Shown here: piece by piece, positions 38,315-63,349 of the stretch | Layout of the letters: each line of letters begins with the position of its first letter | Position numbering within the stretch: the first letter of the stretch is position 1 | The notes under the pieces: generated by a model | Database searches by the model: none | Told to the model about the DNA's origin: nothing | What the model saw: only the letters and a program-made list of their open reading frames with translations | Made by a program: the position numbers and the translations under genes | Assembly (NCBI RefSeq): GCF_030384885.1 | Contig: NZ_CP128613.1 | Reading direction: 5' to 3' (one strand) | DNA: 64,000 bases | Origin: Escherichia coli | GTDB taxonomy: Bacteria > Pseudomonadota > Gammaproteobacteria > Enterobacterales > Enterobacteriaceae

Positions 38315-39319
38315 ATGAAACGCGCGTCTTTGCTTACACTCACGCTTATCGGCGCTTTTAGCGCCATCCAGGCTGCCTGGGCGGTTGATTATCCGCTACC
38401 ACCAACCGGAAGCCGACTGGTTGGGCAAAATCAAACGTATACGGTGCAAGAAGGGGATAAAAACCTTCAGGCCATCGCCCGACGTTTTGATACTGCGGCA
38501 ATGTTGATACTTGAAGCCAATAACACTATCGCTCCGGTGCCAAAACCCGGTACGACGATAACGATTCCTTCGCAATTGTTATTGCCTGATGCGCCGCGTC
38601 AGGGGATTATCGTTAACCTTGCAGAGCTGCGCCTTTATTATTATCCGCCGGGAGAAAATATCGTGCAGGTCTATCCGATAGGTATTGGATTGCAGGGGCT
38701 GGAAACGCCGGTGATGGAAACGCGTGTGGGGCAGAAAATCCCTAATCCAACCTGGACGCCAACGGCGGGCATTCGTCAGCGTTCGCTGGAGCGTGGCATT
38801 AAATTACCGCCAGTCGTTCCTGCCGGGCCAAATAACCCGCTAGGACGTTACGCACTGCGCCTCGCGCATGGTAATGGCGAATACCTCATTCATGGCACCA
38901 GTGCGCCGGACAGCGTCGGTTTGCGTGTCAGTTCAGGGTGTATTCGCATGAATGCACCGGATATTAAAGCCTTGTTCTCCAGCGTGCGGACGGGAACGCC
39001 GGTGAAAGTGATCAACGAACCGGTGAAATATTCCGTGGAACCGAACGGGATGCGTTATGTGGAAGTACATCGACCACTATCAGCAGAAGAACAGCAGAAC
39101 GTTCAGACAATGCCTTACACACTGCCAGCAGGCTTCACGCAATTTAAAGATAATAAGGCTGTAGACCAGAAGTTAGTCGATAAAGCGTTGTATCGTCGGG
39201 CAGGGTATCCAGTTGCCGTGAGCACTGGCGCAACGCCTGTAGCCAGCAATGCGCCTTCAGTAGATTCAGCGCAGAATGGTGAACCAGAGCAAGGGAATAT
39301 GTTACGCGCGACGCAGTAG
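38315..39319 (+). CDS. ldtE: L,D-transpeptidase with LysM domain
   Basis: 334-aa ORF with signal peptide, LysM-like region and YkuD catalytic region ([20 protein letters not shown]). Confidence 0.93.
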
Positions 39320-59765: not shown

Positions 59766-60935
59766 ATGAAGATTAACTATCCGTTGCTGGCGCTGGCGAT
59801 TGGCGCGTTTGGTATCGGGACAACGGAGTTCTCGCCAATGGGCTTGTTGCCCGTCATTGCGCGCGGTGTGGATGTCTCGATTCCCGCTGCCGGAATGTTA
59901 ATCAGTGCCTATGCAGTTGGCGTAATGGTTGGCGCGCCGCTGATGACGCTTCTACTTTCTCATCGTGCCCGCCGCAGTGCGTTGATTTTCCTGATGGCAA
60001 TTTTCACGCTCGGCAACGTACTTTCCGCCATCGCGCCGGATTATATGACCCTGATGCTTTCACGCATTTTGACCAGCCTGAATCACGGAGCATTTTTTGG
60101 TTTGGGTTCAGTTGTGGCCGCAAGCGTGGTGCCAAAACATAAACAGGCCAGCGCAGTTGCCACTATGTTTATGGGGTTAACCCTGGCAAATATCGGTGGC
60201 GTTCCGGCAGCGACCTGGTTGGGCGAAACCATCGGCTGGCGGATGTCATTTCTGGCAACGGCGGGGCTGGGCGTGATTTCAATGGTAAGTCTGTTCTTCT
60301 CATTACCTAAAGGTGGAGCAGGGGCGCGACCTGAAGTGAAAAAAGAGCTGGCGGTATTAATGCGTCCGCAGGTGCTGTCTGCATTGCTGACGACGGTACT
60401 GGGGGCTGGTGCAATGTTTACCCTCTACACCTATATCTCTCCGGTACTGCAAAGCATTACCCACGCAACGCCGGTGTTCGTCACGGCAATGCTGGTGCTG
60501 ATTGGTGTCGGATTCTCTATCGGTAACTATCTCGGCGGCAAACTGGCAGATCGTTCAGTTAACGGCACGTTGAAAGGCTTTTTGTTGCTGCTGATGGTGA
60601 TTATGCTGGCAATCCCGTTCCTGGCCCGCAATGAGTTCGGCGCAGCTATTAGCATGGTGGTGTGGGGAGCTGCAACCTTTGCGGTCGTACCGCCGTTACA
60701 GATGCGCGTGATGCGTGTCGCCAGTGAAGCGCCTGGTCTGTCTTCATCAGTCAATATTGGTGCCTTTAATCTTGGAAATGCGCTGGGAGCAGCTGCTGGT
60801 GGTGCGGTAATTTCCGCTGGGCTGGGATACAGTTTTGTGCCGGTGATGGGGGCGATTGTCGCGGGACTGGCATTATTGCTGGTGTTTATGTCAGCCAGAA
60901 AACAACCTGAGGCAGTTTGCGTTGCCAACAGCTAA
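59766..60935 (+). CDS. ydhP: MFS transporter
   Basis: 389-aa hydrophobic ORF. Confidence 0.9.
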   Translation: MKINYPLLALAIGAFGIGTTEFSPMGLLPVIARGVDVSIPAAGMLISAYAVGVMVGAPLMTLLLSHRARRSALIFLMAIFTLGNVLSAIAPDYMTLMLSRILTSLNHGAFFGLGSVVAASVVPKHKQASAVATMFMGLTLANIGGVPAATWLGETIGWRMSFLATAGLGVISMVSLFFSLPKGGAGARPEVKKELAVLMRPQVLSALLTTVLGAGAMFTLYTYISPVLQSITHATPVFVTAMLVLIGVGFSIGNYLGGKLADRSVNGTLKGFLLLLMVIMLAIPFLARNEFGAAISMVVWGAATFAVVPPLQMRVMRVASEAPGLSSSVNIGAFNLGNALGAAAGGAVISAGLGYSFVPVMGAIVAGLALLLVFMSARKQPEAVCVANS

Positions 60936-60944
60936 TTAAACAAA

Positions 60945-60970
60945 AACGCAGAAGGATAACCTTCTGCGTT
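60945..60970. terminator. Hairpin terminator after ydhP (also positioned downstream of convergent sodB)
   Basis: aacgcagaagg-ataa-ccttctgcgtt with A-run upstream and short T context. Confidence 0.6.
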
Positions 60971-60998
60971 ACAGTTGCTGGCAACGTGCGATTTATCT

Positions 60999-61060
60999 TG
61001 CCGGATGCGGTGTTAACGCTTCATCCGAGTTGGCATGGTAAGCGAAGCGCATCAGGCAAT
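60999..61060. repeat. REP/BIME-like repetitive extragenic palindrome
   Basis: GCCGGATGCGGTGTTAACGCTTCATCCG resembles enterobacterial REP consensus, followed by an inverted partial unit (AGCGCATCAGGCAATG). Confidence 0.55.
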
Positions 61061-61080
61061 GTTGCATTTGCCATCAGTTA

Positions 61081-61662
61081 TTATGCAGCGAGATTTTTTG
61101 CTACGAATTCCCAGTTCACCAGCGCCCAGAAGTGCTCCAGATAGCCAGGACGTGCATTGCGATAGTCGATGTAATAAGCGTGTTCCCAGACATCAACGGT
61201 CAGCAGTGGAGTCGCATCGGTGGTCAGCGGAGTACCCGCGTTAGAGGTTGAAACGATAGCCAGCTTGCCATCGCTGTTTTTCACCAGCCAGGTCCAGCCA
61301 GAACCAAAGTTTTTGATCGCTGCATCAGTAAACTGAGCTTTGAAATCGGCAAAGCTGCCAAAAGATGCGGCGATAGCTTCAGCGACTTTTCCAGTCGGTT
61401 CGCCACCCGCGTTCGGTGCCAGGCAGTTCCAGTAGAAAGTATGGTTCCAGACCTGAGCTGCGTTGTTGAATACGCCACCTTCAGAGCTGCGAATAATCTC
61501 TTCCAGTGATTTACCTTCAAACGCGGTACCTTTAATCAGGTTGTTCAGGTTAGTCACATAAGTCTGATGATGCTTGCCGTAGTGATACTCGATGGTTTCC
61601 GCAGAAATGTGCGGTGCCAGAGCATCTTTAGCATATGGTAGTGCAGGTAATTCGAATGACAT
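61081..61662 (-). CDS. sodB: Iron superoxide dismutase
   Basis: 193-aa [48 protein letters not shown]..., Fe/Mn-SOD family. Confidence 0.97.
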
Positions 61663-61789
61663 TGCTACTCTCCTTTATTATTAATTTGCATACGTACAAT
61701 AGCCTTATTGTGCGTATGGATAGGGTAGCAAATTAAAAGGTGAGACAAAAGATGAACTTACCCTGTTGCCGTAACAACAGGGTAAAGTT

Positions 61790-62617
61790 TTAGCGAAGTG
61801 TTTTTGGGGTCATTACCCGGCGAGCGCCAACATAGTGGCGCTGCCAGTAGTCTTCACTGAGAGAAGTGATTTGAATTTCCTGACCCGTACGCGGTGACTG
61901 AATAAATTTGCCGTTGCCGACATACACGCCGACATGATCGGCTGTACCGCGTCCCTGAGTACGGAAGAAGACCAGGTCGCCGTTTTTCAGTTCACTACGT
62001 TCGATAGGTGCTGCATCACGCAGGTGATACATTTCATTCGCCGTACGCGGAATACGAATTTTCACCAAATCTTTATAAGCGTAATAAACCAGGCCGCTGC
62101 AATCAAAACCGGTACGCGGTGAGCTGCCACCCCAACGATATGGCTTACCAATTTGCTGCATCAGTTTATTCATTGCCACTTTTGTAGCTTTTTGCACCTT
62201 CGCTTTGTGTGCGTCGGCAAGGGTTCCTGACGCGGCATTTTTGACTTTCACACAATGCGATTTATAGCCCTTACGTTTGGTACACTTTTCGGTAAAGCTG
62301 GCTGAGGCCGTTTTATTGACGACGTGTTTGCTGCGAGTTTTGGCGTTTTTAGAAGCGGTAATGGAAGATTTTTTAACGGAAGAAGCGGTTTTGCTTTTGG
62401 TCGTACTTTTACTGGCGGCTTTTTTCGCTGTTTTCTGGCTGGCTTTCTGGGTCTTTTTGGTGGTTGCCGTACTTTTCTTTTTATCTGCTTTTTTGGTGAT
62501 ATGAGTGGTAGCAGAACTCTCCCTGGCTTGCTTTGAAGCATGGGCCATAGGCGTTAAAGGCAGGGTGGTAAAAAGTAAAGCACAGAGCGTGATCGAAATA
62601 CGGTTTATCCGCGCCAC
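61790..62617 (-). CDS. mepH: NlpC/P60-family peptidoglycan D,D-endopeptidase with K/S/T-rich low-complexity linker
   Basis: 275-aa ORF (GTG start): signal peptide, about 70-residue Lys/Ser/Thr-rich segment, C-terminal NlpC/P60 domain (GFDCSGLVYYAY...HVGVYVGNG). Confidence 0.9.
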   Translation of the reverse strand: MARINRISITLCALLFTTLPLTPMAHASKQARESSATTHITKKADKKKSTATTKKTQKASQKTAKKAASKSTTKSKTASSVKKSSITASKNAKTRSKHVVNKTASASFTEKCTKRKGYKSHCVKVKNAASGTLADAHKAKVQKATKVAMNKLMQQIGKPYRWGGSSPRTGFDCSGLVYYAYKDLVKIRIPRTANEMYHLRDAAPIERSELKNGDLVFFRTQGRGTADHVGVYVGNGKFIQSPRTGQEIQITSLSEDYWQRHYVGARRVMTPKTLR

Positions 62618-63299: not shown

Positions 63300-63313
63300 T
63301 CCGTCCTGCAATA

Positions 63314-63341
63314 CTGACGGATGCGAACGGGCATCCGTCAG
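63314..63341. terminator. Bidirectional hairpin terminator between grxD and lhr
   Basis: ctgacggatgc-gaacgg-gcatccgtcag, 11-bp perfect stem. Confidence 0.7.
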
Positions 63342-63349
63342 TCCTTTCT

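Follow-up and report, generated by a model that had tools for sequence, protein, structure and literature searches.

The convergent genes ydhP and sodB of E. coli are separated, in the 64-kb stretch of DNA analysed here (the window), by an intergenic spacer of 145 bp that carries a palindromic repeat, which raises the question of what this repeat is and whether it shapes the 3' end of the sodB mRNA. The original prediction described a REP/BIME-like element, made up of one unit and an inverted partial unit, and suggested that it may stabilise the 3' end of the sodB message. Taking the whole reading together, we consider it likely that the repeat is a REP pair, that it is an Escherichia insertion into the sodB 3' UTR, that sodB transcripts end at the terminator and not at the repeat, and that the pair is largely a neutral relic. 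The parts of the locus, in window coordinates, are the following.

59766-60935, + strand: the gene ydhP.
60938-60970, - strand: the intrinsic terminator of sodB, with an 11-bp stem read from 60970 to 60945, the tail TTTGTTT and a predicted 3' end at 60942 (terminator scan; K-12 Term-seq).
60971-60997, no strand: single-copy spacer from the terminator to the doublet, within the Escherichia-specific insert, pairing weakly with 61062-61076 in MFE folds.
60998-61059, no strand: the whole REP doublet, an atypical degenerate BIME (REPv128a,b), with an outer stem of 11/12 bp and an MFE of -22.3 kcal/mol for the 62-nt core.
60999-61026, + strand: REP unit 1, z-type, of which the head, stem and loop are present and the GGCCTAC (CTAC/GTAG) tail is missing; profile E 0.0046, 4 mismatches in 28 nt.
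61029-61058, - strand: REP unit 2, short y-type, inverted, with GTAG changed to GTTG; 4/30 mismatches to TGCCTGATGCGCTACGCTTATCAGGCCTAC, the short-y form of the K-12 training loci.
61060-61080, no strand: the 21 nt that separate the foot of the doublet from the sodB stop codon, read from the sequence.
61081-61662, - strand: the gene sodB, with its stop codon at 61081-61083.

The neighbouring genes beyond sodB are mepH, grxD and purR. The 221 bases around the doublet are 100% identical to those of strain 7/2 and were found in 5,425 of 5,426 complete genomes. Two single-copy flanks, at 60975-60989 and 61062-61076 (GCAACGTGC and GCATTTGCC), are partly complementary, and the whole insert of ~100 nt is therefore predicted to fold as one long imperfect hairpin on either strand. 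A promoter scan of the sodB-ydhP spacer found none, and two open reading frames that run over it on the + strand (60917-61144 and 61035-61244) were judged to be spurious antisense overlaps with sodB.

Positions 60998-61059 are a degenerate E. coli REP pair, in which a z-type unit and an inverted short y-type unit are arranged tail to tail. The doublet at sodB is already known, being catalogued as REPv128a,b in K-12; Table 2 of PMC10100675 gives, under their K-12 names, 'REPv128ab' for sodB and 'REPt127' for grxD. For its detection, we built a REP profile from the classical malE-malF pair as seed, with which nhmmer gathered 23 REP units in 150 kb of K-12 from other loci. These 23 training REPs sort into the expected classes, namely z (35 nt), long y (37-38 nt) and short y (30 nt). 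A scan of the 64-kb window with REP models, which had been proposed along with the element, yielded one significant profile match, at 60999-61026 (+), with an E value of 0.0046 and spanning positions 1-28 of the 35 in the model. The z consensus, taken over its first 28 nt, matches the window once, at unit 1 with 4/28 mismatches, and the 30-nt short-y consensus likewise matches it once, at unit 2 with 4/30 mismatches. No other match to either consensus was found in the window even at up to 6 or 7 mismatches, and 20 shuffled windows gave 0. The profile and the class-specific consensus forms replaced a substitution-only, full-length REP consensus (up to 8 substitutions), which gave no match because loop lengths differ.

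The motifs themselves are readily located. The 28-mer GCCGGATGCGGTGTTAACGCTTCATCCG is present exactly at 61000-61027 of the window, and a second head motif, GCCTGATGCG, lies on the - strand from 61057 to 61048. Together, the heads of the two units form a 12-nt inverted repeat (60998-61009 and 61048-61059) that is complementary at 11 of its 12 positions, and the two 13-nt arms of unit 1 (61002-61014 and 61015-61027) are 77% complementary. The degenerate head GCCKGATGCG occurs 3 times in the 64-kb window compared with 0.36 expected, a count reached in no shuffle. A third copy of GCCTGATGCG, at 38584, was rejected as a REP, since it is without a REP tail and has a profile E value of 0.5; it sits in presumably coding, reading-frame-like sequence without an ORF call.

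The 67-nt core occurs at no fewer than 22-54 places per E. coli genome (median at least 38), and the adjoining 34-nt flank, which takes in 60971-60997, at a median of 1 place per genome under the same search settings. The doublet is extragenic, lying in the 145-bp spacer between the end of ydhP at 60935 and the sodB stop codon at 61081-61083, and shows the pairing of a BIME, its + strand z unit and - strand y unit meeting tail to tail. The REP/BIME-like element that had been proposed is borne out by the sequence, by the many dispersed copies, by the location outside genes and by the inverse orientation of the paired units. Both of its units are present, but it is not the inverted one that is partial: unit 2 is a full-length short-y REP, and the tail is missing from the z-type unit 1 instead. 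That this is the only clear REP-type repeat in the window also held, at a single profile and consensus site, with the caveat of a REP-like hairpin after grxD (63313-63343) that the profile missed. An Rfam scan of 60700-61900 at E <= 10 returned nothing in the spacer, and the REP family was absent from its matches. The RefSeq annotation of K-12 shows no repeat feature in the sodB-ydhP spacer, which is uninformative because the classical malE-malF spacer is equally without one.

A REP is defined as an imperfect palindrome of 30-40 nt with a conserved GTAG at its foot, and a BIME as an inverted pair of REPs with an L or S linker (PMC3333891). Binding and cleavage by TnpA_REP need the GTAG (PMC3333891). 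In the window allele this tag is lost in both units, unit 2 reading GTTGG for GTAGG and unit 1 ending in ...CATCCGAG with no CTAC, whereas GTAGG is intact in both units of the K-12 allele. The characteristic L or S linker is missing as well: the units abut, with 2 nt between them (61027-61028), as compared with a 13-nt spacer in the K-12 allele, to whose intact y REP unit 2 is positionally homologous. By hand pairing, the own foot of unit 2 is disrupted, and the MFE structure pairs unit 1 with unit 2. In the sodB-sense RNA, the doublet is accordingly predicted as one composite hairpin formed by head-to-head pairing (-22.3 kcal/mol for the 62-nt core), while in the K-12 allele each unit folds separately in the predicted fold. 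The whole 156-nt spacer folds at -51.6 kcal/mol in the sodB sense, with z = -4.5. The doublet is best called an atypical or degenerate BIME.

Compared with the y and z REPs found in E. coli BIMEs (Stern/Higgins; Gilson, Bachellier; Ton-Hoang 2012, PMC3333891), the window doublet has the same heads, GCCGGATGCG and GCCTGATGCG, and the same stem-loop layout. It also shares with them inverse units, a location outside genes where two genes converge, a copy number in the dozens in each genome and a strain-variable number of units, but differs in that GTAG/CTAC is present in neither unit and unit 1 is tailless. As both the L and the S linker are missing, it cannot be classed as BIME-1 or BIME-2. Unlike a canonical REP, the y unit of the window seems no longer to fold alone, the pair being predicted to form a composite hairpin; the K-12 allele is much closer to the canonical form. 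REPINs are inverted REP doublets taken as the unit that is mobilised by RAYTs (Bertels and Rainey). The window doublet resembles them in that its two inverted REPs pair as a single long hairpin and have persisted at the orthologous site in E. coli and E. whittamii, but its flanks are single-copy and its recognition tag is lost. Given the requirement for GTAG, the window doublet is probably no longer mobilisable by TnpA_REP.

The number of units at the sodB-ydhP locus varies by strain, with either 2 or 3 REPs. Alleles were defined from an alignment of seven strains, and their shares, which are approximate, were read from identity bands and sampled rows of 5,425 genomes.

Short allele: 145 bp intergenic, 2 abutting units, in the window, S88 and O157:H7; ~66% of genomes.
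K-12-like allele: 161 bp intergenic, 2 units with a 13-nt spacer, in MG1655 and CY598; ~7% of genomes.
Long allele: 234 bp intergenic, 3 REP units, in 720632 and ET665; ~28% of genomes.

No genome without any REP unit at this locus was seen in the sampled rows, and nearly all of the 5,426 genomes match across the intergenic region. In the long allele of 720632, an 8-nt direct repeat, ATCCGCGT, brackets the exact 89-nt segment that is missing from the short allele; such an arrangement would fit a segment deleted or duplicated through slippage or through recombination of REP units with one another. Among five short-allele strains, 7/62 sites vary in the REPs versus 4/83 in the rest of the spacer, which is not statistically significant and a trend only. 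Analysis of compensatory changes in the outer stem gave no support for a conserved RNA structure, the substitutions being mixed, with a wobble on one strand and a mismatch on the other. Across the alleles, the core MFE covers a threefold range, between -19 and -61 kcal/mol. The terminator hairpin shows no variation among 7 E. coli alleles, its MFE being -17.4 in all of them.

This hairpin, at 60945-60970, had originally been assigned to ydhP. The terminator scan scored it on the - strand only, with an 11-bp stem containing 6 GC pairs and then TTTGTTT; on the + strand, that of ydhP, ACAGTTGC comes after the hairpin, without a T-run. For comparison with other species, we retrieved 96 of their sodB loci by a degenerate pattern on the sodB C-terminus. 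In many other genera, the hairpin ACGCAGAAGG-loop-CCTTCTGCGT with its T-run, or close variants thereof, begins 3-10 nt past the sodB stop. Carriers of the sodB hairpin that have no REP include many Citrobacter species, Enterobacter, Salmonella arizonae, Trabulsiella, Silvania and Leclercia, and in the REP-less genera the 3' end of ydhP comes directly after the hairpin. Because the T-run is on the sodB strand, the hairpin is conserved after the stop codon across REP-less genera and the 3' end in K-12 Term-seq falls on it, we conclude that 60945-60970 is the ancestral intrinsic terminator of sodB. The repeat does lie between this hairpin and the 3' end of the sodB gene, as had been stated, but the attribution of the hairpin to ydhP has to be dropped, the T-run being on the sodB strand only.

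The spacer at 60971-60997 is absent in Citrobacter, Enterobacter and Salmonella arizonae. E. whittamii has a doublet of y and inverted z, with the hairpin at +119. These comparisons show that the doublet and ~40 nt of flanking single-copy sequence were inserted in the Escherichia lineage, past the sodB stop codon and ahead of the terminator. Since the insertion is upstream of the terminator, the doublet is internal to a lengthened sodB 3' UTR. The corrected local map has the conserved hairpin as the terminator of sodB, not of ydhP, and the REP pair as a lineage-specific, polymorphic insert in the 3' UTR. In itself the doublet matters little, REPs being among the best-known bacterial repeats and the locus already named in K-12, but it provides a clean example of a REP doublet that landed between a stop codon and its terminator.

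Mapping of the sodB 3' end, the second check that had been proposed, was done with K-12 Term-seq data, which contain a strong sodB-sense 3' end at 1736114 (+) (Adams et al. 2021, PMC7815308, supplementary file 1). This entry occurs three times in the file, which covers three growth conditions, and two of its rows score 23167 and 8132 (PMC7815308). By coordinate transfer, 1736114 is in the U-tract of the terminator, at the fifth T after the GCG end of the stem, and corresponds to 60942 of the window; the sequence at this 3' end reads ...CCTTCTGCGTTTTT / ...AACGCAGAAGGTTATCCTTCTGCGTTTTT. The peak is labelled 'antisense ydhP' in PMC7815308 because it is more than 50 nt from the sodB stop. No curated 3' end lies within the K-12 REPs at sodB in supplementary file 1 (PMC7815308). 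This absence is meaningful because the same data set reports a 3' end at the REP-like hairpin of the malE-malF spacer (4245094), which serves as a positive control. Peaks were called from uniquely mapped reads with threshold curation, a procedure by which minor REP-associated decay intermediates could be missed, and the strain is K-12, whose REP allele differs from that of the window in having intact units and a 13-nt linker. From K-12 we infer by homology that the sodB mRNA of the window strain ends at ~60942 and carries the doublet internally.

Because REP-mediated stabilisation of mRNA is an accepted and established mechanism, one might predict that the pair blocks 3'-to-5' exonucleases and defines a stable sodB 3' end, as has been described for malE-malF. 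Stabilisers of this kind are discussed in PMC10100675. The REPs are indeed transcribed within the sodB 3' UTR and have stable predicted folds (-22 kcal/mol for the core and -51.6 kcal/mol for the 156-nt spacer, z = -4.5), and as in malE-malF there is a z and an inverted y unit downstream of, and transcribed with, a highly expressed gene. However, the Term-seq end at malE-malF is at the REP-like hairpin itself (4245094), whereas in the sodB spacer it maps past the REPs, to a canonical intrinsic terminator of the same strand, with no peak at the REPs. In addition, genera sharing the sodB terminator do without any REP, and the stability of the element differs threefold among E. coli alleles. We therefore regard a function as 3' stabiliser as unlikely. 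What remains of the suggested stabilisation is that the doublet is transcribed in the 3' UTR and may have a secondary stabilising role; the 3' end itself maps at the separate terminator and not at the REPs. A more general caution follows, in that a REP downstream of a gene need not set or protect the 3' end of that gene.

Instead, the doublet is most likely a near-neutral relic of a mobile repeat, with a back-up role at most. After its insertion ahead of the pre-existing terminator, the doublet now present at sodB would be essentially the relic of a repeat once mobilised by RAYT/TnpA_REP. This interpretation is put forward because GTAG is lost, gain and loss of whole units is tolerated and substitutions are accumulating. 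As a secondary effect, the doublet may present a second hairpin barrier to 3'-to-5' exonucleases after the terminator stem has been breached. It may also act as a structural roadblock to ydhP read-through, which is conceivable given that the terminator lacks a U-tract when read in the direction of ydhP. Persistence since before the split of E. coli and E. whittamii and near-universal presence are also compatible with some selective retention. REPs located within ~15 nt of a stop codon reportedly repress translation or interfere with its termination (Liang, Rudd and Deutscher, 2015), but such a mechanism is unlikely here because the doublet starts 21 nt past the stop and thus beyond that distance.

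Selective use of the insertion after its arrival would be a further scenario, in which the three length alleles, with modelled REP structures of ~-20, -35 and -61 kcal/mol, would alter the decay of sodB mRNA or the insulation from ydhP. We judge such co-option quite unlikely. If it were true, natural E. coli lineages would differ in Fe-SOD expression by way of a polymorphic 3' UTR repeat.

The doublet could also be thought to work on the opposite strand, where a terminator, attenuator or insulator for ydhP would keep read-through from running antisense into sodB, a highly expressed gene. BIME-associated attenuation of transcription has reportedly been observed (Espeli et al., 2001), and several features of the locus would suit such a role. 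Past the conserved hairpin, the ydhP strand reads ACAGTTGC and has no T-run; in Citrobacter the corresponding side is T-rich (ATCATTTTTA), a tract that was replaced by the Escherichia insert; and the + strand RNA has a long predicted hairpin (-56.6 kcal/mol) followed by the U-rich GUUAUUAU. However, a canonical U-tract is absent on the ydhP strand, and K-12 Term-seq lists no ydhP-sense 3' end in the spacer, its sole ydhP-related entry being a Rho termination region within ydhP itself. That the stem is polymorphic and decaying likewise speaks against strong selection, and we give this function very little chance of being the right one. The Rho termination region internal to ydhP is at K-12 position 1736788 (-), or ~60270 in the window when counted back from the stop codon of ydhP (Adams et al. 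2021, supplementary file 2), a hint that a large part of ydhP transcription may stop short of the spacer.

A role at the DNA level, in which the doublet, by analogy with some BIMEs, would be bound by DNA gyrase, IHF or Pol I and would relieve supercoiling between convergent sodB and ydhP, would agree with a location that is typical of REPs and with documented protein binding to BIMEs (PMC3333891, PMC2817692), but is highly improbable here: the window allele has no linker, and hence not the IHF-binding L linker of BIME-1, no WATCAANNNNTTR-like site was seen by eye within the doublet, and the same convergent gene pair occurs in other genera without a REP element.

Further observations concern the neighbourhood of the doublet. 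In Kluyvera ascorbata, a different palindrome, AATAACCCGGCATCGCAACGCTTCGCCGGGTTAT, lies between the sodB stop and the conserved terminator, within the first 70 nt after the stop. Kluyvera ascorbata and Escherichia taken together suggest that small palindromic repeats recurrently land between the stop codon and the terminator of sodB. The REP-like hairpin at 63313-63343 (+), ctgacggatgcgaacgggcatccgtcag, lies ~14 nt past the grxD stop and is REPt127 in K-12, where Term-seq maps the 3' end of grxD just past it. Undetected by the REP profile, it is thus a variant hairpin that acts as the 3' end structure of grxD. At the other end of sodB, Rfam gave a sub-threshold match to RF02775, the SodB 5' UTR thermometer, at 61633-61737 (-), with 31.4 bits compared with a gathering threshold of 98 and an E value of 0.0014; this match spans the start of sodB and its leader.
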